This document shows, one piece after another, positions 3-34,799 of a DNA stretch of 38,472 bases (position 1 is its first letter; every line of letters begins with the position of its first letter). The notes below the pieces were generated by a model. The model did not search any database, was not told the origin of the DNA, and saw nothing but the letters and a program-made list of their open reading frames with translations. The position numbers and the translations under genes were made by a program. The DNA comes from an uncultured Bacteroidota bacterium (lineage in GTDB: Bacteria > CLD3 > SB21). The stretch spans positions 1-38,472 of the forward strand of contig CAZHUW010000006.1 in NCBI GenBank assembly GCA_964535295.1, written 5' to 3'.

Positions 3-3000
3 CACAAATCCGGCGGCACAGGCGTTTCAAGTTTTGAATATCAGATCAGCAATTACGGTACACTTCAAATAGACTCCGGTCTGACCGTTCTGTGTTATGA
101 CAGCCTTGTTAACTTCAGCGGCGGCATCATCACAGGAAAAGGTACACTCGATGTCAGCACTCGAATGACCAATGCCGGAACGATTCGCCCCGGAACTTCT
201 CCAGGTAAACTTAGAGTAACGGGAAATTTGAAGAATACGAGTACCGCCATTTATGATGCGGAGATCGGCGGGAAAAACCCCGGACAATTCGATGAACTTC
301 GCGCATCCGGCACCGCAACGCTTGCGGGAACTTTGAACATAAATCTGATCGACGGTTATCTGCCTGCTTTAAACGACACGATCAAGGTATTGAATTACGG
401 TTCCAAGACGGGCGCTTTCGGCGCGATCAACGGACTCCGTAGCGGCGGACCATATGATTTCGTACCGCTGTACAAAGACACGGCGCTTTTTTTGATCGCC
501 TCGGATTCGCTCAATTCAGAACCGGTTGCATCCACTGATTTTTTGTCTGCTCCTGAAGATGTTGAAACCCATCTTCCCGTTCTCAGAAACGATGTAGATT
601 CGAACAGCGACGCTCTGTCTGTTGTGGAAATTTTATCCGGTTACCCGCAGTATGGAACCGCGCACATTGGTTCGCCCGACACGACCATTGTGTACACATC
701 CCCGCTCAACTACTTCGGTAAGGATACTTTGCGTTACGTCGTATATGACGGACGCGGCGGATGGGACACCGCAGGCGTTAGTGTCACGATTACTCCCGTT
801 AATGATGCTCCAACTCTCAAGGACACTTTCGCCATTGCGAACCAATTTGGCGTCGCGAGGATCAATGTAATCACCACGGCCACCGATGTCGAAGGTTCCG
901 CACTTTTTGCGTCCACTGCATCCAAACCAAAATACGGCGAGGCGCATGTTGACGGTAACGACTCATTCGTCGTCTATATTCCGCCCGTACATTTCACAGG
1001 CATTGACAGCTTCAAATTCTATGTTTCCGACGGCAGCGCAGTTGATTCGGCAACGATGGTCGTCACAGTTTCCTCCGGTGATTCATTCCTGGTAACCTGG
1101 AGTAAATTCAATTCGAGCGACGAGGGATGGAATACATTCAACGATGTTTCCGATTCAGCCTTCTTATCAACGGGCGGAAACCCGGGCGGTTATTTCTATG
1201 CCGTGGACGCCGTGACCGGAGCTTGGTGGTATTTTAATGCGCCGTCCAAATTCCTGGGAGATCTGAGTTCGACCTACAACAAGACCCTGCGATTTGATAT
1301 GAAACAGAATCCGGCGGGCACGGATAATTCACAACCCGACGTGATACTGATCGGAAACGGCGTGCAATTGAATTATGATTTTCCGCGTAATCCCAGGACC
1401 AATTTCACCGGTTTCGGCCTGATACTCAACGAGACTACCGGTTGGAAAAAACAAACGACCGGGTTGGCGCCGAGCCAATCAGAAATGCAAAACGTGCTGG
1501 CCAATGTAACTACGCTCAGAATTCGTGGTGAATTCACAGGAGGAGCAGACAGCGCCGGCATTGACAATATCATACTTGGTAAGATTCCAGGTAATTCATC
1601 GCCTGTGGCCAATGCAGACGACGCAAGCACTAACGAAGAAGTATCCGTGCAGGTTTCTCCGCTGACCAACGATACCGATCCGGAGAGCCAGTCACTCACG
1701 ATCACGGCCGTTGGCAACGCCCTCAACGGTACTGCAACCATTGATGCAGGCACTCTCACCATTACTTACAAACCGGATTCTAATTTCGCGGGCGTCGATT
1801 CTTTCGCATATCATATCACGGACGGGTACGGCGGACAGGATTCTGCTTATGTCCGGGTAACGGTGAACAACATCAACGATGCGCCGGTCGTCGTTGCGGC
1901 GATTCCCGACACTACCTTCAATGAAGATTTCGGCAAATCGTTTTTGGCCGTGATGTCCGACGTATTTTATGACGTGGATAACGGTCCGACGTTCGGAGCA
2001 ACTAACCTTTCCGGCGGCGTTACGCCGTTCATTTCCAATGATAGTTTGTACGTTTTGAGTTCGGCCTACTACAACGGCACCGTGGATATTCGTGTCACGG
2101 CGAATGACGGGGAATATACGGCAGCCGACACGTTTTCTGTCAATATCACCGGCGTGAATAACGCGCCGACGCTAACCGCCGCCCTTCGCGATACGTCGTT
2201 CAACGAAGATTTCGGGCGAACTTTCGCCGGATTGCTGTCGGCTTACTTCACCGATACCGATGGCGATACGCTGACATTCGGTTCAAATGTTCTTTCAGGA
2301 AGTGTGACCGTTCAAACCGATCTCGACAGCTTATTTATTACCGGCGGTGCTGATTTCAACGGGCCTGCCTTCGTTCGCGTTACAGCTAGTGACGGGCAGA
2401 ACGCAGTGTCCGACACGTTTCAGGTTACCGTTACGCCAATCAATGATTCACCGGTACGCCTTAGCGAAATCAGCGACCGGAATCTGGCACAGGATTTCGG
2501 AAGAGTATTTGGAGACAAACTTTCCGACATGTTTACAGATATTGACAACTTTTCGCTCACCTACGGAGTTACGACGCTTAACGCCGGAGTCAATGGAGAA
2601 ATCTCCAACGATACACTGTATCTGGTAAGCACAAACGGTTTCACCGGCGCTTCAACGCTGCGTGTATCAGCAAGTGACGGCGAATATACGGTTGCAGATA
2701 CGTTCATAGTGAATGTAAATTCTTCCAATGTCCCTCCGACAATGTCCGCCATACTTCGCGACACCACACTATTTGAGGATTTCGGGCAGTTGTTCGTCTA
2801 TAAACTCAGCAACTTTTTCAGCGACACAGAAGTTCTTACTTATTCCGGGTCTGCGCTCGGCGCCGGTGTGGCTGCACAGGTTTCCAATGACAGTTTGTAT
2901 CTTACAAGTACTTCCGATTTCAACGGCAGCGTATCGGTTCGTGTCACCGCCTCGGACGGGATCTTTACGGTTCCAGACACATTTATAGTAAACGTATCAC

Positions 3001-4556
3001 CCATTAACGACGCACCGGTTCTGACCCAATTCCTGTCCGACGTTACCTTAGCGGAGGATTTCGGAAGTTATTCTGCAGGACTTCTGTCCGGTTATTTCTC
3101 TGATGTTGACAATGTGCTGACTATTTCTGCTACGAATCTCGATGCGGGCGTAACCTCTGTCATATCCAACGATTCGTTGTATTTGCTCGGCTCGATCAAT
3201 TTTTACGGGAATGTTCGCATCAAAATTACAAGCGATGATGGGCAATATACCGTGTCGGACACGTTCGTAGTAACAGTAACTCCACAGAACGATGCGCCTT
3301 CAGTGTTTTCTTTACTTGCCCCGGCGCCAAATGCTCTTATCAATATCCTCCGGCCCGTATTCCGATGGAATACATCAAAGGACATTGACGGCGATACTTT
3401 ACAGTATCTGCTTGAGATATCGACGCAGACGGACTTCTCCTCGCTGGAGCAATCCTATTCGATTGCCGATACCGTTCAGACGCTGACGTCCGATCTTGAC
3501 AGTACGGGAACGTATTACTGGCGGGTCACGGCCACTGACGGGAGCGGCGGAAGTTTTCAGACAACGGCGCTAAGTTTCCGGACAGATGCAACGCGGCCGG
3601 ATATCCGCATCAGCGTTCTGCAAGGACCCATAACAAAACGTTATCTTGATACTTACGCCTATTCCAACGAGAACTTATCCGGGGCGGTCAATTCGACTTT
3701 CACGCTGAAAAACAGCTCAGGAACCACGATCGACAGCCGTTCCGCCGCGATGAACAAAATAGGAACGTCGAACTTATATACCTCTTCGTATCACGTTGCC
3801 GACGTCGGAAGCCTTGAGATCCAAGTCACGGCGCAGGACGCAGCCGCTAATCAGCGTATTGCAAACAGAAATTATACGGTCAACGCTCTGCTCAAAGGAG
3901 AAACGTTCGTATCGCTCTCGCCGGAATTTGAAGTGAGTTCAATCAAACCGGCGATTTCCGAATCCGGATTCATACTAACCGGTCCGGTAAAAGAAATCGA
4001 ATCAGCCGTGATGACATCGCTAAAAAACGGGGTCGAATTGATCGGCACGACGGAGCTTAAAGATGCGCTAAAGCTCACGATCCGGTACGACGCATCGGAA
4101 ATGTCGTCTTTAAAGTTAAGATCCAATTTCGACGAACGTAAGATCGGCATCTATCGCGTTACTGAAAACGGCTTTGAATATGCCGGCGGACAAGGACACG
4201 ATCATGCGGTCACGGTGACGGTATCGTCCTATGGCAAATACGTTGCGCTTTACGATGACCGCCATGAGATCGTGCCGGAACGAATTGAATTGGCACAGAA
4301 TTATCCTAACCCGTTCAATCCGTCAACCACGATCCAATACGGACTCGCCGTGACCGGCAAAGTACGTCTTGTCATTTACAACGTCCTTGGCCAGCGCGTA
4401 AGGGAATTGATTGATGCAAACCAGCCGGCAGGTTACCACAAAGTCCTATGGGACGGAAGAAACGCTTCAGGACAAACCGTTGCGACGGGCATGTATATTT
4501 ACCGCCTCGAGACATCGGACGGCGTGCTTTCGCGTAAGATGATGTTAATAAAATAA
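3..4556 (+). CDS. Large secreted/surface adhesin-like protein (5'-truncated): beta-helix-like N-terminal segment, Ig-like domains, laminin-B-like domain, five cadherin/Ig-like repeats, FN3-like domain, C-terminal FlgD-Ig/T9SS type A sorting domain
   Basis: The frame is open without a stop from position 3 (HKSGGTGVSS...) into the listed ORF at 165, so the gene starts upstream of the window. It carries repeated N(D/N)AP...D....EDFG units and ends in LAQNYPNPFNPSTTIQY...LWDGRNASGQTVATGMYIYRL, typical of FCB-group secreted proteins. Confidence 0.9.
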   Translation, partial: HKSGGTGVSSFEYQISNYGTLQIDSGLTVLCYDSLVNFSGGIITGKGTLDVSTRMTNAGTIRPGTSPGKLRVTGNLKNTSTAIYDAEIGGKNPGQFDELRASGTATLAGTLNINLIDGYLPALNDTIKVLNYGSKTGAFGAINGLRSGGPYDFVPLYKDTALFLIASDSLNSEPVASTDFLSAPEDVETHLPVLRNDVDSNSDALSVVEILSGYPQYGTAHIGSPDTTIVYTSPLNYFGKDTLRYVVYDGRGGWDTAGVSVTITPVNDAPTLKDTFAIANQFGVARINVITTATDVEGSALFASTASKPKYGEAHVDGNDSFVVYIPPVHFTGIDSFKFYVSDGSAVDSATMVVTVSSGDSFLVTWSKFNSSDEGWNTFNDVSDSAFLSTGGNPGGYFYAVDAVTGAWWYFNAPSKFLGDLSSTYNKTLRFDMKQNPAGTDNSQPDVILIGNGVQLNYDFPRNPRTNFTGFGLILNETTGWKKQTTGLAPSQSEMQNVLANVTTLRIRGEFTGGADSAGIDNIILGKIPGNSSPVANADDASTNEEVSVQVSPLTNDTDPESQSLTITAVGNALNGTATIDAGTLTITYKPDSNFAGVDSFAYHITDGYGGQDSAYVRVTVNNINDAPVVVAAIPDTTFNEDFGKSFLAVMSDVFYDVDNGPTFGATNLSGGVTPFISNDSLYVLSSAYYNGTVDIRVTANDGEYTAADTFSVNITGVNNAPTLTAALRDTSFNEDFGRTFAGLLSAYFTDTDGDTLTFGSNVLSGSVTVQTDLDSLFITGGADFNGPAFVRVTASDGQNAVSDTFQVTVTPINDSPVRLSEISDRNLAQDFGRVFGDKLSDMFTDIDNFSLTYGVTTLNAGVNGEISNDTLYLVSTNGFTGASTLRVSASDGEYTVADTFIVNVNSSNVPPTMSAILRDTTLFEDFGQLFVYKLSNFFSDTEVLTYSGSALGAGVAAQVSNDSLYLTSTSDFNGSVSVRVTASDGIFTVPDTFIVNVSPINDAPVLTQFLSDVTLAEDFGSYSAGLLSGYFSDVDNVLTISATNLDAGVTSVISNDSLYLLGSINFYGNVRIKITSDDGQYTVSDTFVVTVTPQNDAPSVFSLLAPAPNALINILRPVFRWNTSKDIDGDTLQYLLEISTQTDFSSLEQSYSIADTVQTLTSDLDSTGTYYWRVTATDGSGGSFQTTALSFRTDATRPDIRISVLQGPITKRYLDTYAYSNENLSGAVNSTFTLKNSSGTTIDSRSAAMNKIGTSNLYTSSYHVADVGSLEIQVTAQDAAANQRIANRNYTVNALLKGETFVSLSPEFEVSSIKPAISESGFILTGPVKEIESAVMTSLKNGVELIGTTELKDALKLTIRYDASEMSSLKLRSNFDERKIGIYRVTENGFEYAGGQGHDHAVTVTVSSYGKYVALYDDRHEIVPERIELAQNYPNPFNPSTTIQYGLAVTGKVRLVIYNVLGQRVRELIDANQPAGYHKVLWDGRNASGQTVATGMYIYRLETSDGVLSRKMMLIK
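1875..3287 (+). repeat. Five tandem ~93-95 aa cadherin/Ig-like protein repeats
   Basis: Repeat starts (N-D/N/V-A/S/P-P) at 1875, 2157, 2442, 2727 and 3006; the next unit boundary is at 3288. Shared motifs: (E/Q)DFG, SNDSLY, V(T/S)ASDG..TV.DTF.V.V. Confidence 0.85.
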
Positions 4557-16155: not shown

Positions 16156-16189
16156 TAAAAAAATCCCGCACGCCAAAAGCATACGGGAT
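16156..16189 (-). terminator. Intrinsic terminator after the porin gene
   Basis: Minus strand ATCCCGTATGC-TTTTG-GCGTGCGGGAT (two G-U pairs) followed by TTTTTT. Confidence 0.8.
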
Positions 16190-16219
16190 GATTCTCAGAA
16201 TTAACAGTTATTTTTTCTA

Positions 16220-17584
16220 TCAGAATCTGTATTGCACACGGAACGTGAACACATTGTCTTTCACATCTTTCCTGAACCGCACCAGTGCTGAAGAAGTTGC
16301 AGCGCTATTTACTTTTTCATTTTGAACCATTTCATAATAGGCCGTTAATTTCACATTATCGTCCCAATGGTAGATCCAGCCAAGGCCGATAGTGTTGAAC
16401 TTGATATCCGCAGGCGATGTTTTGCTCCCGACACCGATGTCCGAACCTTTGACGCCCGTATTCGGATCGTAGATATCGTATTTGACAACGGCCTGGTTCT
16501 TCTTCCCGGCATTCTGAATATACATGACATACATACCTGCGAATTTACGCCTATAAACCGGCTGCACATCCGGTATGGATTTGACCGAAGTCCCGCTAAC
16601 CGTCTGAACGGTACCCGGATTATAGAAAGAACCCGAAGAGGCGGTGCCGGGCTGATCCCCGGAAATATATTCTCCGCGGATCTGCATCGCGCCGATCACA
16701 GGAAGCTCATAATAGGCCTGCGCATCGAAGCCCAGGTATTTTCTATCGAAGGACGCAAGAATATTACTTGAAGACGAATCGCGCACAAAGTTCTTATTGC
16801 TGATGCGGTACACCTCCGCTGAATTGCTTGTTATTTTTCCGGAATACATGGAAATGCCGCCGTCGACAACCAGATTCATAGTTTTCACAGGCAGTGTAAA
16901 TCCAAAACGGCCTATGATATCTTTGTTATCGTCGTTCTCATTGGCTGTATTCAGGACACCGTTGAAAACACCCGCCTTTAAGTTAAAATGGCTCCATAGG
17001 CCGGTTTCTTTCTTTGGAAATATCTCTGCTTTAACGCCGATCTCACGCTCACCGGGAAAAAGCGTCTGATACATTCTTGAACGCTCGGGCGATTCGCGTT
17101 TTGATGACGAATAAGAGATCTCATAACCGAACGGCCGATCTGAGGCGCCGATAACGAACGTAGCCGTTTTGAACCACGGCTCCGTCACCGCAACATACGC
17201 GTCTTTGATCCCAACGCCGTTTTGCGTCACATCGACCTGCAAGACGAATTGAGAAAGCCCGTTATCATACACTGCTTTGAGCCTTCCGCGGCGCACGGCA
17301 AAACGCGATTTGACATTAGACGGGAATGTCCCACCTGCAAAATCGCCGGCTTTCCACTGCGACGTACCCTGGCTGTCCGTGAATTGGTACTGTGCCTGGA
17401 TGTAACCTGAGAACTTCAGTTTATTGGTTTTGTCCACCGATTTTTTAACATCCTGAAGCGCTTTCTTAAGCTCCTCAATTTGTTCGTCGCCCGGCTTTTC
17501 CGTCGAGCTGCCGGTCTGTTCCTGAGCCGTCACCATGCGGTGTGCCGCGAACAGAAGTATCAGAATCCACGCAAATTTCTTCAT
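16220..17584 (-). CDS. Outer-membrane porin, phosphate-selective OprO/OprP-like
   Basis: Signal peptide, short coiled-coil, FSGYIQAQYQ, FAVRRGRLK, IKDAYV, FGYEISYSSSKRESPERS and a C-terminal Phe beta-signal (VQYRF). GGAGG RBS. Confidence 0.8.
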   Translation of the reverse strand: MKKFAWILILLFAAHRMVTAQEQTGSSTEKPGDEQIEELKKALQDVKKSVDKTNKLKFSGYIQAQYQFTDSQGTSQWKAGDFAGGTFPSNVKSRFAVRRGRLKAVYDNGLSQFVLQVDVTQNGVGIKDAYVAVTEPWFKTATFVIGASDRPFGYEISYSSSKRESPERSRMYQTLFPGEREIGVKAEIFPKKETGLWSHFNLKAGVFNGVLNTANENDDNKDIIGRFGFTLPVKTMNLVVDGGISMYSGKITSNSAEVYRISNKNFVRDSSSSNILASFDRKYLGFDAQAYYELPVIGAMQIRGEYISGDQPGTASSGSFYNPGTVQTVSGTSVKSIPDVQPVYRRKFAGMYVMYIQNAGKKNQAVVKYDIYDPNTGVKGSDIGVGSKTSPADIKFNTIGLGWIYHWDDNVKLTAYYEMVQNEKVNSAATSSALVRFRKDVKDNVFTFRVQYRF

Positions 17585-26694: not shown

Positions 26695-27312
26695 TTAGCG
26701 GAAAACTTTGTCTTTCGTCCTGATGATCGGTTTTCTTAATTTGTATATGAGATAAGCGCTCCCCGCCCCGACCACGGCGCCCATCAGCACGTCGCTCGGA
26801 TAATGCATCCCGATCGCCATGCGGCTGTATCCCGCAATCCCTGCCCAGGCAAAACTCGGTACGATCACGTACCACTTGGGATAATTCAACGAAACCATCG
26901 TCGCTACGGTGAAAGCGGAACTCGTGTGGCCTGATGGAAACGAAGCGCTGCGTTCCGTTGACCCGACCGTGTGTACGCCCGACAACGCTTTGTAAGGACG
27001 TTTTCGATCAACCGCATTTTTCATTCCATACGTAATTCCGTAGTTCAGAATGGCCGCGGTCAACAGCAAAAATCCCGTATCTTCCGCTTTTCGGTCCTTC
27101 CGAATGATGCCCGTGGCAAGAAAACCCAAAGGCGTTCCGATATAAACGGGCTTGACGGAATTGCTTTGAAAACTGAAAAAATTATCGCTGAATTTTGTAT
27201 GATGATCGTTGATCGAGCGGAAGATACGCGTGTCGAGATTTTGCGCTTCGAGGAGCGCGCCTTTGAAAAACAAACAAATGGTAAAGATCGATATTGCAGA
27301 CCCGTATTTCAT
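26695..27312 (-). CDS. PAP2 family phosphatase
   Basis: C1 K..VDRKRP, C2 SFPSGH, C3 SRMAIGMHYPSDV. N-terminal signal-like segment. Confidence 0.93.
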   Translation of the reverse strand: MKYGSAISIFTICLFFKGALLEAQNLDTRIFRSINDHHTKFSDNFFSFQSNSVKPVYIGTPLGFLATGIIRKDRKAEDTGFLLLTAAILNYGITYGMKNAVDRKRPYKALSGVHTVGSTERSASFPSGHTSSAFTVATMVSLNYPKWYVIVPSFAWAGIAGYSRMAIGMHYPSDVLMGAVVGAGSAYLIYKLRKPIIRTKDKVFR

Positions 27313-27707
27313 TTCAGTTTCTCCAAAAATTTCTTTGGCGGGCGCGCCGGCCGGCCGCTATGATCGGTAAAAGCGTGAACGGTATGACCCGTAGCAACTA
27401 ATACCGTTTGACAGAATAACTTGTATTCGATCCGTATGCGCGCGCCATTCTGTTCTGTAAAAGCCGAATGCAGATCCAGTTCATCATCGTAGCGGATCGG
27501 TTTGATATAATTACAATGCGCCTCGATCACCGGAAGAAAAAATCCTTCCGATTCAAGCTGCGAATAAGGATAGCCCAGATCGCGCATGATCTCATTGCGG
27601 CCGACCTCGAACCAAACAAAATAACTCGCGTTATATGCGACTTTCATGCTGTCGGTCTCGGCGTAGCGGACGCGGATGCGGGTAATATTGGTTTTTGTTG
27701 AATTCAT
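27309..27707 (-). CDS. Acyl-CoA thioesterase (YbgC/FadM hot-dog fold)
   Basis: IRVRYAETDSMKVAYNASYFVWFEVGR. Start refined to the ATG at 27707; the upstream 35 codons of the ORF track are repeat-derived low-complexity sequence. Confidence 0.92.
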   Translation of the reverse strand: MNSTKTNITRIRVRYAETDSMKVAYNASYFVWFEVGRNEIMRDLGYPYSQLESEGFFLPVIEAHCNYIKPIRYDDELDLHSAFTEQNGARIRIEYKLFCQTVLVATGHTVHAFTDHSGRPARPPKKFLEKLK

Positions 27708-27731
27708 CTGTGGAATGTTTAATACGGGGCC

Positions 27732-27758
27732 CGCGAAATACGCGAAAAACACAAAAGA
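27732..27758 (+). repeat. Degenerate 9-mer tandem repeat (CGCGAAATA CGCGAAAAA CACAAAAGA)
   Basis: Directly visible in the accA-thioesterase spacer; only one arm is present. Confidence 0.5.
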
Positions 27759-27816
27759 ATGGAAGAAACAAAAAACACTTAACAAGAAATGAAAAATGAC
27801 TAATTGACTCAATGAA

Positions 27817-28773
27817 TCAATTCTTCAACTCTCCCCACCGTCCCATTTTGGAGTATTTCTCAATACGCGCATCAAGAAGCTCCGGTACAGGCATCTGCTG
27901 CAACACCTCCAATTCTTTCAAAACGGCTGCCTTCACATTTTTTGCGGCCTGATCGTAATCGCGGTTGGCGCCGCCGATAGGTTCCTTGATGATCCCGTCG
28001 ATCACATTGAACTTCATCAGATCGTCGGCGGTGAGTTTCAAAGCCGAAGCGGCTTGTTCCTTATACTCCCAGCTTCGCCATAAAATACTTGAACACGATT
28101 CCGGCGCGATCACAGAATACCAGGTATTCTCCATCATCAGCAATCGGTCGCCGACGCCGATACCTAAAGCGCCTCCGGAAGCGCCCTCTCCGATAATCAC
28201 GCAGATGACCGGAACGGGTAATCGCGACATGACCAAAAGATTTTTCGCGATCGCTTCGGCTTGTCCTCTCTCCTCCGCTTCAATACCGGGATAGGCGCCC
28301 GGCGTATCGATCAGCGTCAGGATCGGCCGTTTGAATTTAGCCGCCATATTCATCAGGCGCATGGCCTTGCGGTAGCCTTCCGGGTTGGGCATACCGAAAT
28401 TACGATACACGTGACTCTTGGTGTCTTTGCCTTTTTGCTGGCCGATGATCATGAATTCCGTGTTTTCGATCTTACCGATGCCGCCAACGATCGCGTGGTC
28501 GTCGCCAAATAAACGGTCGCCATGCAGTTCCACAAAGCCGACGCTGATACGCTCGATATAATCAAGCGACCGCGGCCTCTCGGGATGCCTCGCCAGTTGT
28601 ACCTTTTGCCAGGGGGTCAGGTTGGAGTAGATCTCTTCGCGCATTTGCTCCACCTTTTTTCTGAGGCCTTCGAGTTCTTCGGAAATATCCACTTGTTCCG
28701 CCGCAGATTCCATCTCCTGGATCTTACTCTCAAGTTCCGCGATCGGTTTTTCAAAATCCAATATAACGGGCAA
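27817..28773 (-). CDS. accA: Acetyl-CoA carboxylase carboxyltransferase alpha subunit
   Basis: [66 protein letters not shown] start with GGAGG RBS. Confidence 0.98.
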
Positions 28774-28788
28774 GACGCCTCCTTGTGT

Positions 28789-29526
28789 TTATAACCTGCC
28801 GAAAAAATGCTTGATCTTCAGTTTCCAGACAAGCAGCAATCCTTCTTTGACGATATTCGCCGACATTTTGGAATAACCTATCGTTCGATCATAAAAGATG
28901 ATCGGCGTTTCACATAACTTAAACCCGAGTTTCCACACGCGGTAATTCATCTCGATCTGAAATGAATACCCGCTCGCGCTCACGCGGCTGAGATCGATGG
29001 CGCGAAGAACGTCGGCCCGAAAACATTTGAACCCGGCGGTCACATCGCGCACCGGAATTCCCGTCACAAACCGCGCATACCTATTGCCGAAATAACTGAT
29101 CAAAAGCCTGCTGAGCGGCCAATTGATCACATTCACTCCTTTGACGTATCGCGATCCGATCACGAGATCGTATTCCAGGATCTTTTCAAAAAAGTCTTTC
29201 AGGTATACGGGGTCGTGCGACAGATCGGCGTCCATCTCAAAAATGTAATCGTACTTCTGTTCCAACGCAAAAAGAAATCCTGCCACGTACGCTTTCCCGA
29301 GGCCTTGCTTCTCGCTGCGTTCGAGCAAATGGATCCGCGGATCGGAGGTTTGCAACTCTTTAACAACCTGTCCGGTACCGTCGGGAGAATTATCATCCAC
29401 CACCAGGATATGCAGTTCCGATATATAACGGGTGAAATCGTACGCGTATATCCTGGCGATAATCAGCGGAATCGTATCTTTCTCATTGTAGGTCGGAATC
29501 ACAATGAGCGCGCGTTTATCGTTCAT
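28789..29526 (-). CDS. Polyprenol monophosphomannose synthase-like glycosyltransferase (GT2, DPM1-like)
   Basis: IVIPTYNE, VVDDNSPDGT, GLGKAY, EMDADLSH, VIGSRY, DVTAGFKCF, GYSFQIE. Confidence 0.93.
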   Translation of the reverse strand: MNDKRALIVIPTYNEKDTIPLIIARIYAYDFTRYISELHILVVDDNSPDGTGQVVKELQTSDPRIHLLERSEKQGLGKAYVAGFLFALEQKYDYIFEMDADLSHDPVYLKDFFEKILEYDLVIGSRYVKGVNVINWPLSRLLISYFGNRYARFVTGIPVRDVTAGFKCFRADVLRAIDLSRVSASGYSFQIEMNYRVWKLGFKLCETPIIFYDRTIGYSKMSANIVKEGLLLVWKLKIKHFFGRL

Positions 29527-29541
29527 CCAAATTCCTTTGTA

Positions 29542-30006
29542 TTAGAAACGGCATCCGTTTTGTTTAAAGAACAATAAACGGTCTCTCAAATGATGATCCG
29601 AAAAAGAAAGTATCTGCGCGGCAAGAATCGCGGCGTTCTTTGCGCCGTTGGGGCCGATACCCATCGTGGCTACCGGCGTGCCTTCCGGAAGCTGAGCCAT
29701 GGCATAAAGCGTATCCAATCCATGCGTCGAACCGGATGAAAGCGGAATGCCGATCACAGGCAGATAGGTCCGGGAGGCGATTGCCGAGGCTAAACCCGAT
29801 GTGGTACTGTAGGCGGCTATAAAGACCCGGATCCCGCGATCGGTGCCTTTTTTGACAAACTCGACCAGTTCTTCCGGATTAGATAAATGTTCAATAGTGA
29901 CGGTTTCGTAACGCAGACCGAAACGATCAAGGTATTCCTTGCACCCTTTGATTTGCTCCGCCTCCTGGCCGTTCTCGAGCATAATAGCGATCTCGGTTAG
30001 ATTCAT
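29542..30006 (-). CDS. PurE (AIR carboxylase/N5-CAIR mutase)-fold protein with degenerate active site
   Basis: The C-terminal half is clearly PurE (LPVIGIP, GLDTLYAMAQLPEGTPVATMGIG, GAKNAAILAAQIL). The MGSxSD, SAHR and GAGGAAH motifs are replaced. Confidence 0.85.
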   Translation of the reverse strand: MNLTEIAIMLENGQEAEQIKGCKEYLDRFGLRYETVTIEHLSNPEELVEFVKKGTDRGIRVFIAAYSTTSGLASAIASRTYLPVIGIPLSSGSTHGLDTLYAMAQLPEGTPVATMGIGPNGAKNAAILAAQILSFSDHHLRDRLLFFKQNGCRF

Positions 30007-30012
30007 TTATCC

Positions 30013-30504
30013 TCAATTATGTATTTTGGTTACCATGTCGGACAGCAGCGCCGATTGGACCTGCTTTTCATCAACTAATTTCTGCATAAAAACGCGGGTG
30101 CCTTCATCCTGTGCAACGGCCGTATGAAAAATGTACTGATTGTACATGTCATGAATTTCCCTCAAGCTGAGCGAGAGACGCACGCCGAACTGATCATGAA
30201 ATACGAACTCCGGTTTTACGGGTTCCTTTCCGGCTTGTTCGGCAATACGCTGTTTGAGCGATTCGATCAATGCTGCCTGCCGCGTAAGAAAAGCGTTCAG
30301 TTTTTCTTTTAGATAAGGGTATTGAACTTCACTGATCACCAGCTTTACATGCTCATATACTTTCGATTCATGAATGTAAAAATCGAGGAACTGCGCATTC
30401 GATGCGCGGTGATTGGATTGGGCCGGAAACGTACGGTCCCACCAGTCCAATAATTTCTGCAGGGTCCTGCCTGCGCCGGTTGTATCTTGTTGTACCTGTG
30501 CCAT
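30013..30504 (-). CDS. Ferritin-like four-helix-bundle protein, apparently lacking di-iron ligands
   Basis: Helical pattern FLDFYIHE...YPYLKEKL...LKQRIAEQAGKEP and QDEGTRVFMQKLVDEK resembles ferritin-like domains. GAAGGA RBS. Confidence 0.6.
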   Translation of the reverse strand: MAQVQQDTTGAGRTLQKLLDWWDRTFPAQSNHRASNAQFLDFYIHESKVYEHVKLVISEVQYPYLKEKLNAFLTRQAALIESLKQRIAEQAGKEPVKPEFVFHDQFGVRLSLSLREIHDMYNQYIFHTAVAQDEGTRVFMQKLVDEKQVQSALLSDMVTKIHN

Positions 30505-32906: not shown

Positions 32907-34799
32907 ATGCACAAAGACAAAATATTCGTTATCGATTTTGACAGCACTTTTATCCGGCTGGAATCGCTTGACGAGCTCGCTGATATTGCTCTCAAAGAAC
33001 ATCCGAATAAGAATAATATTCTGGCAGAGATCAGGAATATTACCCGCCAGGGCATGGAAGGAACTATCACCTTTTCAGAGTCCCTTAAAAAACGGCTGGC
33101 TCTTTTCACACCCAAAAAACAGCATCTGCAGGAATTGATCCACCTTCTTCGAGATGCCATTACACCGTCAATTTTGCGTAATAAAGAATTTTTTATCCAA
33201 TTTGCCGACCAGATCTACATCCTGTCCGGCGGTTTCACCGATTATATCTTTCCGGTCGTAGAAGAATTCGGGATACAGCGGTCGCATGTTCTTGCCAATA
33301 CGTTTGTCTTCACCAAGTCCGGCAGCATTTCCGGAGCCGATATGAAGAATCCGCTTGCTCAGAACGGCGGCAAAGCGAAAGCGATACGTCAAAAGAAACT
33401 CAAAGGTGATATCTTCGTGATCGGCGACGGGATCACCGATTACGAGATCAAAGAAAAAGGCCTGTGTAAAACGTTCATTGCCTTTACAGAGAACGTGCAA
33501 AGAAAGAACGTTATGGGGTTGGCGGACGCGGTATGCCCTAATTTCGACGATGTCCTCTTCTATCAGAACCTTCCCGGCCGATATTCATATCCCAAGAACA
33601 GGATCAAAGCCCTGCTGCTGGAAAACGTTCATCCGTCCGCGGCTGAAATTCTGAACAAAGAAGGATACACAGTCGAAACCTTACCCCAAGCCTTGAGTTT
33701 TGATGAACTAAAAAACAAACTTTCCGATGTCAGCATCCTTGGTATCCGCTCAAAGACCGAGATCACGCCGGAAGTGTTGAAACTGGCTCCTAAACTCATA
33801 GCGATCGGCGTTTTTGCAATCGGCACCAACGAGGTCAATCTAAAGGCTGCCGCCGAACAAGGCGTCCCCGTTTTCAACGCTCCGCATAGCAGTACGCGAA
33901 GCGTTGCCGAATTGGTTTTGGGATATATTTTTTCCTTGTCACGTCAATTACCACAGAAAAGCCATGAACTGCGAAGCGGCACCTGGACCAAAGCGGCAAA
34001 GGGTTCTTACGAAGTACGCGGTAAGAAACTGGGGATTATCGGCTACGGCAATATCGGGTCGACCCTTTCTGTACTGGCAGAATCGCTGGGAATGACGGTA
34101 TGTTTTTACGACATACAGGAAAAACTGGCGCTGGGCAATGCCACGGCTTGTTCATCCATGCGCGATGTTTTGCAACAGGCCGACATCGTCACCCTACATG
34201 TTGACGGACGAAAAGAGAACAAAAATCTGATCGGCGCGTATGAATTTGACGCTATGAAGGAAGGCGTACTTTTTATTAATGCAAGCCGCGGGAACGTTGT
34301 AGACATGGATGCCCTGTGCGCGGCGTTACGATCGGGAAAGATCCGCGGCGCGGCGGTGGATGTGTATCCGAAAGAACCTAAAAGCAATAAAGAGGCTTTC
34401 ATCTCACCCCTGCAGCAATTTGAGAATGTGATCCTGACGCCGCATATCGGCGCCAGCACAGAAGAAGCTCAGAAAAATATCGGCGAATATGTTGCGGGCA
34501 AATGCATCTCTTTTGTGAATACCGGCAATACGATGTTAAGCGTTAACTTTCCGCAGCTCCAGCTTCCGGAATTACGCAACGGACACCGGATCATTCACAT
34601 TCACCGCAATCTGCCCGGGGTACTGTCAAAGATCAACAGCATCATTGCGCATCATAAGATCAATATCGAAGGACAGTATTTAAAAACGAACGAGTACATC
34701 GGGTATGTCATCACGGACGTTACGGCGGAATATCCGAAAGAAGTAATTCAGGAACTCAAAGATATTCCAGAAACGATACGGCTGAGAATGCTTTATTAA
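32907..34799 (+). CDS. serA: Fused HAD phosphoserine phosphatase (SerB-like) and D-3-phosphoglycerate dehydrogenase with ACT domain
   Basis: N-terminal DFDST (HAD motif I), ILSGG, IGDGITD. From about aa 230: GIRSKT, GIIGYGNIG, NASRG, DVYPKEP, TPHIGAST and a C-terminal ACT domain. Confidence 0.95.
   Translation: MHKDKIFVIDFDSTFIRLESLDELADIALKEHPNKNNILAEIRNITRQGMEGTITFSESLKKRLALFTPKKQHLQELIHLLRDAITPSILRNKEFFIQFADQIYILSGGFTDYIFPVVEEFGIQRSHVLANTFVFTKSGSISGADMKNPLAQNGGKAKAIRQKKLKGDIFVIGDGITDYEIKEKGLCKTFIAFTENVQRKNVMGLADAVCPNFDDVLFYQNLPGRYSYPKNRIKALLLENVHPSAAEILNKEGYTVETLPQALSFDELKNKLSDVSILGIRSKTEITPEVLKLAPKLIAIGVFAIGTNEVNLKAAAEQGVPVFNAPHSSTRSVAELVLGYIFSLSRQLPQKSHELRSGTWTKAAKGSYEVRGKKLGIIGYGNIGSTLSVLAESLGMTVCFYDIQEKLALGNATACSSMRDVLQQADIVTLHVDGRKENKNLIGAYEFDAMKEGVLFINASRGNVVDMDALCAALRSGKIRGAAVDVYPKEPKSNKEAFISPLQQFENVILTPHIGASTEEAQKNIGEYVAGKCISFVNTGNTMLSVNFPQLQLPELRNGHRIIHIHRNLPGVLSKINSIIAHHKINIEGQYLKTNEYIGYVITDVTAEYPKEVIQELKDIPETIRLRMLY

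Follow-up and report, generated by a model that had tools for sequence, protein, structure and literature searches.

The window, a stretch of DNA of 38,472 nucleotides, carries on its minus strand (29542..30006) an intact reading frame for a PurE-like, AIRC-fold protein of 154 amino acids. PurE is a textbook enzyme, universally conserved and an antibacterial target. The protein described here is a paralogue of it and belongs to a clade that has dismantled the active site throughout while selection has held the fold strongly, apparently once an incoming purE-purK operon had taken over its function. It is well supported that this stand-alone pseudoenzyme is a new variant within the PurE superfamily and a real, selected feature, narrowly distributed; our literature searches found no description of a PurE pseudoenzyme.

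The reading we prefer, with a probability of roughly 0.6, is that of a PurE-fold protein, non-catalytic and probably an octamer, whose termini do its work by contacting other proteins, the best candidate partner being a 163-residue protein encoded directly upstream. We infer the retention of the octamer, the absence of enzymatic activity and the nature of the partner. With the PurE core and the octamer-building segments kept, the protein would serve as a scaffold or adaptor. The clade offers a dated, testable example of a displaced enzyme recycled as a pseudoenzyme. It is also a warning for annotation, as counting AIRC-domain matches would wrongly credit the PurE step in pathway reconstructions. 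Its reach is limited, as the clade occurs in a single order of sludge bacteria within an uncultured phylum.

Fold and active site of the PurE-like protein

The protein belongs to the AIRC superfamily by its match to Pfam PF00731 (119.3 bits, cut-off 30) and scores below the cut-off of the purE equivalog model TIGR01162 (110.3 bits, cut-off 149.6). Membership of the LarB family was considered and rejected, the score against NF033503 being 16 bits for a cut-off of 175. Solved class I PurEs aligned to it without gaps over about 145 residues (3trh at 2.7e-27, 3oow and 1qcz), at 30–38% identity. Residues are numbered here as in E. coli PurE, whose sequence we confirmed to be identical to 1qcz_A. 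A first-pass annotation of the sequence had called for a structure prediction, and an AlphaFold2 model of the monomer, built with 119 homologues, reached a pLDDT of 93.7 and matched PurE crystal structures in Foldseek at TM 0.92–0.94. As modelled, the window protein keeps the PurE fold. Its C-terminal half is preserved, with LPVIGIP, QLPEGTPVAT and GAKNAAILAAQIL all present, much as the annotation had described.

The same annotation had drawn a gapless alignment to E. coli PurE with three replaced motifs, and all of it proved exact when checked against 1qcz_A. In the phosphate/ribose loop, M14-G15-S16-K17-S18-D19 has become L-E-N-G-Q-E. In the catalytic SAHR loop, S43-A44-H45-R46-T47 has become E-H-L-S-N, with Leu41 of the window protein at the position of H45. 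In the 70s loop, whose backbone amides bind carboxylate or CO2 in class I PurE, G69-A70-G71-G72-A73-A74-H75 has become A-Y-S-T-T-S-G. Three active-site features of class I PurE (His45; G15-S16-x-S18-D19; the 70s loop G-A-G-G-A-A-H-L) are thus missing from the window protein. The PurE active site is built from the P-loop, the SAH(R/K) loop and the 70s loop (PMC9376930; PMC10484210). The catalytic His is universal in class I and class II PurEs, as first claimed, and PurE loses its activity when this residue is replaced by Asn, Phe, Ala, Ser, Gln or Trp, as shown with the E. coli and A. aceti enzymes (PMC9376930).

We set 29 members of the clade beside 127 canonical class I PurEs. The replaced positions are 98–100% invariant among the canonical proteins, and the loss is therefore not chance drift of variable sites. 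The first-pass annotation had left open whether orthologues share the substitutions, and they do. His45 (canonical 100%) is L in 23 members, M in 5 and I in 1, with His in 0/29; G15 (100%) is D in 15, E in 11 and H in 3, with Gly again in 0/29. S16 (100%) is mostly N, and S18 (98%) is Q, N or E, with Ser in 0/29. D19 (100%) is D in 22/29 and E in the window protein. S43 (100%) is kept in 16/29, R46 (100%) in 8/29, and A70 and G71 (both 100%) in 15/29, while A74 (98%) is S in 21/29 and G78 (100%) is A, S or T in 25/29. The core and interface-region positions G62, I67, P87, V88, P92, G113, P115, V116 and N128-A130 are retained in the clade.

Two further candidates for the protein's activity were rejected. 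A His shifted by one residue, H40, had been suggested as an alternative catalytic residue, but it occurs in only 7/29 members, the window's genus-level subclade, and is not conserved. Membership of class II PurE (AIR carboxylase) fails because there is no His at the catalytic position and the clade adjoins class I sequences, a judgement made from the His and the tree position.

Constraint within the protein was measured region by region, as how frequent the top residue is, in the clade, in canonical PurEs and in the purEK-type PurEs of the same genomes. For the cis catalytic loops the values are 0.52 (entropy 1.79 bits), 0.92 and 0.96 respectively, and for the rest of the protein 0.71 (1.12 bits), 0.57 and 0.77. 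At the N-terminus they are 0.89, 0.46 and 0.65, and over the C-terminal 18 residues 0.81, 0.40 and 0.59. The old catalytic loops thus have the clade's lowest conservation and the termini its highest, whereas the termini are the least conserved part of canonical PurEs. The N-terminal MNLTE and the C-terminal FFKQNGCRF are invariant in the clade, and its specific invariants are N2, T4, E5, K53, F62, E108 in the 100s loop and F147-K-Q-N-G-C-R-F154. This movement of constraint from pocket to termini argues against a new enzyme using the old pocket and for a function that resides in scaffold and termini.

New chemistry in the old pocket, one of the roles first proposed, is accordingly disfavoured, the old catalytic loops being the least conserved part of the protein. 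In its fullest form this explanation would have the anion site remade into an acidic or hydrophobic one that binds a cation, a metal or a non-phosphorylated substrate, possibly linked to a ferritin-like neighbour described below. The co-occurrence of that neighbour speaks for it, as do the residues themselves: position 15 is D or E in 26/29 members, position 19 is D or E in 26/29 and position 18 is Q, N or E in 26/29, position 45 is always hydrophobic, E5 is invariant and the clade-specific Glu of the 100s loop reaches 86%. The acidic and amide residues of the old phosphate loop, with that conserved Glu, could mean that the pocket is not dead but has been remade to bind a cation. However, besides the high entropy of the old loops, R46, A44 and the 70s loop vary between subclades and H40 is not conserved, and a helix that no longer holds a phosphate is also expected to carry acidic residues at its N-terminal end as mere caps. 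We consider a new ligand or chemistry improbable.

That the protein is still a PurE, a weak N5-CAIR mutase or AIR carboxylase working through other residues, is hardly credible. The AIRC homology runs over the full length, but the universal His, whose substitution inactivates the enzyme (PMC9376930), is gone, the phosphate loop, Arg46 and the 70s loop have been replaced as well, and the TIGR01162 score lies under the cut-off.

Distribution, selection and origin of the clade

A search of 5.8 billion proteins returned 19 relatives at 48–81% identity, after which the matches fell abruptly to canonical PurEs of 45% identity or less. The clade profile, run against 1.84 billion cluster representatives, gave about three clusters (P0017, P0133 and P0137) before canonical PurEs, and a scan of genome contigs gave, among the matches listed, canonical PurEs of other phyla only. 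The paralogue is present in 13 of the 20 species genomes of the window's phylum, all 13 in one order, where it occurs in 12 of the 15 genomes of family f1 and one of the three of family f2. All the genomes compared are MAGs. JGI records of clade members carry the name PurE.

In trees of the PurE family the clade is monophyletic (SH-aLRT 100 with 155 proteins, and 99 in a repeat with 92 rows) and has a long stem, of 0.45 with the 155 proteins and 0.33–0.45 over the two trees. It adjoins the PurEs of family f3, which is of the same class, of Ignavibacteria and of Calditrichaceae; the order's purEK-type PurEs group apart from it, in a clade of their own. The paralogue has been lost cleanly from four of the order's genomes (G009, G010, G013 and G017) and is thus dispensable in some lineages. 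In G017, for example, the order panD-GT2-accA is the panD-PurE-like-GT2-accA of G015 minus the PurE-like gene.

The first-pass annotation had named dN/dS as the way to tell purifying from relaxed selection. Calculated by the Nei-Gojobori method on codon alignments, it is strongly purifying. The paralogues of G001 and G002 differ by a dN of 0.014 and a dS of 0.544, giving an omega of 0.027 against 0.076 for canonical purE; those of G002 and G004 differ by 0.012 and 0.509, giving 0.023, with no canonical value as no purE was found in G004. Purifying selection on the clade is strong, with an omega of 0.02–0.03 where dS is unsaturated. In distant pairs synonymous sites are saturated, and the paralogue's omega still does not exceed about 0.19. 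Family-wide, mean identity is 56% for the paralogue and 73% for canonical purE, and the paralogue's dN is about 1.8-fold higher: it evolves faster than canonical purE, yet is clearly constrained.

The frame is open in 13/13 genomes and also in another 19 cluster representatives from metagenomes. Contigs matching the gene with zero mismatches came from four metatranscriptome runs in two studies (sludge and wastewater), which is weak but independent support for transcription, as the contigs are short, of low depth and may contain DNA. Taken together, these observations make a decaying relic, without function and on its way to loss, very improbable. The four losses in the order and the raised non-synonymous rate would fit decay, but a decaying pseudogene is rejected by the low omega and the open frames, and a relic would not be expected to keep termini that are invariant across an order or to match metatranscriptome contigs.

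Contig C147 of the window's genome (G000; 3.6 Mb, 98% complete) holds a second AIRC gene (203 bits). It carries MGSNSD, SAHRTP and AGAGGSAHLPG, and a purK of 377 amino acids comes immediately after it. As this canonical purE-purK pair lies elsewhere in the genome, the PurE-like gene is a paralogue. A search for such a pair had been proposed at the outset, with the proviso that the repurposing idea would fail if the PurE-like gene were the only purE in a genome with a complete pur pathway; C147 removes that objection. With the clade-wide substitutions and the purifying selection, the pair supports the view of the first-pass annotation that this is a repurposed PurE-fold protein. The genome also has purC. 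Contig C29 holds two SAICAR synthetase (purC) genes, at 2351-3025 and 16164-16910, about 13 kb apart, a duplication also seen in G004 and G013.

Canonical purE occurs in 12 of the 13 genomes that bear the paralogue. The thirteenth, G004, from the window's genus, shows neither purE nor purK although purC is present, which would favour the view that the paralogue is still a PurE. Against this, the paralogue of G001 is 99% identical to that of G004 and G001 has purEK, and G013 has purC without any AIRC gene, which suggests that purEK has been missed in some of these MAGs. G013, of the same family and 98% complete, had no AIRC-family gene and no detected purK; it represents either a recurrent binning gap at the purEK region or a case of a missing enzyme.

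The regular presence of a canonical purE also bears on a prozyme-like role, in which the dead subunit would mix into the active purEK-type PurE octamer and tune or stabilise it. The trans-donated 100s loop (Q-x-P-x-G-x-P-V-A-T) and the core are kept (0.69, against 0.52 for the cis loops), and domain 2 of tandem PurE-PurE' proteins, which occur in several lineages, shows the same pattern of loss, with His replaced by I or T, a degenerate P-loop and a retained 100s loop. For the archaeal PurE', a structural role or a requirement in assembly has been suggested (PMC3261824). However, identity between the paralogue and the canonical PurE of its genome is only about 30%, and the two belong to different PurE lineages, so that compatible interfaces were not inherited from a recent duplication, and the two genes are unlinked, lying on separate contigs. 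Three genomes (G009, G010 and G017) have canonical purEK without the paralogue, and the strongest clade-specific constraint falls on termini not shared by the fusion PurE' domains. A mixed octamer, the leading alternative, seems to us unlikely, and we return to a scaffold or adaptor acting through its termini as the better account.

The clade stems from the PurE type of its sister lineages, which is independent of PurK, and most likely, we infer, it became redundant once purE-purK had been acquired. Family f3 has a single canonical PurE with the same type of C-terminal tail (FKNNGCKI) and no purK in the two genomes tested. In one Calditrichaceae locus the order is purE, pfkB-like kinase, rmlD and GT2; the canonical purE, of this same type, lies 2 kb from the orthologous GT2, and the synteny with GT2 may thus be partly inherited rather than functional. 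On the simplest history, the ancestor would have used a PurK-independent class I PurE, and the common ancestor of the order would then have acquired a purE-purK of a different PurE lineage. The resident PurE, now redundant and still near GT2, would have lost catalysis in a burst, leaving the long stem, and would afterwards have been retained by selection for another role. Gone in this process would be G15, S16 and S18, which bind the phosphate and ribose of the nucleotide, the essential His45 that serves as general acid/base, Arg46, and the 70s loop where the carboxylate binds.

Canonical PurEs with an F-K-x-N-G-C-K tail are followed by a pfkB/ribokinase-family kinase of about 310–355 amino acids in Calditrichaceae, an Ignavibacteria MAG and a 'Bacteroidetes' MAG (L034:188-3373, L030:1226-2607, L027:5905-7486 and L029:6004-8251), and in the two Calditrichaceae loci the reading frames overlap. 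No such kinase was seen at the purE loci of family f3. This kinase might serve in salvage, as one of aminoimidazole-riboside type, or might stand in for PurK.

The gene block and the upstream protein

The PurE-like gene lies in a block of six genes on the minus strand. A helical reading frame of 163 amino acids (30013..30504) comes first, then the PurE-like gene, a GT2 glycosyltransferase of 245 amino acids resembling polyprenyl-phosphate hexose transferases (28789..29526), accA for the acetyl-CoA carboxylase carboxyltransferase alpha subunit (27817..28773), a YbgC/FadM-type acyl-CoA thioesterase (27309..27707) and, last, a PAP2 phosphatase of undecaprenyl-diphosphatase type (26695..27312). 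As originally reported, the 154-residue frame is open and no pur gene flanks it. The thioesterase frame was listed as 27309-27812, starting from a TTG at 27812 and encoding 167 amino acids, with a hydrophobic N-terminal extension of 35 residues that is absent from its orthologues (132–137 amino acids); judging from these, its true start is probably the ATG at 27707.

The gaps on either side of the PurE-like gene are 6 nt (to the 163-residue frame) and 15 nt (to GT2). At the first junction, TGAGGA (30010..30015), the upstream stop TGA (30013-30015) overlaps a GAGGA Shine-Dalgarno sequence (30010-30014) that ends 3 nt before the PurE-like ATG, an arrangement that suggests translational coupling of the two genes. 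Scanned with consensus patterns for sigma-70 promoters and terminators, the block gave nothing useful on the minus strand, and none of the gaps separating its six genes held a terminator-like site.

PurE-like-GT2-accA is found in every orthologous locus, with GT2 always adjacent to the PurE-like gene. The thioesterase and PAP2 genes come next wherever the locus sequence extends to them, except in G015, where PAP2 directly follows accA and there is no thioesterase match. The outer flanks vary. On the plus strand of the window, at 32907-34799, lies a 630-residue fusion of HAD phosphatase, D-3-phosphoglycerate dehydrogenase and ACT domains (SerB-SerA-like), followed by an Aminotran_5 (SerC-like) gene, and this arrangement is conserved in a genus-level relative (L003).

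The 163-residue protein has no Pfam or NCBIfam match, and sequence searching returned close relatives only. Of the 13 genomes that carry the paralogue, 10 have its gene, each time immediately upstream of the paralogue; the seven genomes that lack the paralogue all lack this gene too. G007, G008 and G015 have the paralogue and lack this frame, so that the partner is not obligatory. The model of the protein is of medium confidence (pLDDT 74) and gave weak ferritin/Dps-like matches (E about 0.01–0.1, TM about 0.6); a 'ferritin-like' four-helix bundle is thus a lead, not a finding. An invariant N-terminal DTTGAGKTL..L..WW precedes the modelled bundle. The conserved E46, E116, H118, D119, E146 and H162 may form a degenerate or novel di-metal site. 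The amphipathic helix at the N-terminus resembles a targeting or docking peptide.

Two more specific versions can be put forward as speculation, and we doubt that either will hold. In one, the former enzyme octamer would be the platform of a two-component module with the 163-residue protein, its pocket changed from anion binding to an acidic site for cations; in the other, the PurE-like protein would be a prozyme on its own, tuning the PurE gained by horizontal transfer. Each, if true, would be the first non-catalytic function to be described for the AIRC fold outside fused PurE' domains.

Comparison with known systems

Class I PurE is a homo-octamer with 422 symmetry. The window protein shares its fold and length with this enzyme (N5-CAIR mutase, EC 5.4.99.18; E. 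coli 1QCZ and A. aceti 1U11), together with the conserved core, the 100s loop and the GAKNAA helix. It differs in lacking His45, G15, S16, S18, R46 and A70-G71, in being unlinked to purK or other pur genes and in having constrained termini.

The PurE' domains of fused PurE-PurE' proteins (Methanobacteria, PMC3261824; P0134-P0140) likewise combine a degenerate His and phosphate loop with a kept core and 100s loop. Unlike the window protein, which is stand-alone, unlinked, of other descent and has termini of its own, they are fused to an active PurE and stem from tandem duplication. P0134-P0140 have 319–351 amino acids and two PurE domains, the His of domain 2 being T, I, C or A/T and its GS loop lost. 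In the tree each domain 2 pairs with its own domain 1, apart from the window clade. The fusions thus arose at least three times independently, and a common origin with the window clade is rejected.

LarB, the pyridinium-3,5-biscarboxylic acid mononucleotide synthase, is a neofunctionalised PurE-fold enzyme, and so another member of the AIRC superfamily with a non-purine function. The window protein, at 154 amino acids, has no N-terminal extension of the LarB type (the model has 209 positions), and there are no lar genes near it.

Inactive paralogues that regulate an enzyme are familiar from the trypanosome AdoMetDC prozyme, plant PDX1.2 and the PRPS-associated proteins. In these, as here, an inactive paralogue of a homo-oligomeric enzyme is kept by selection beside the active one. 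The window clade differs in that any hetero-oligomer would be hypothetical and its active and dead copies are not recent duplicates.
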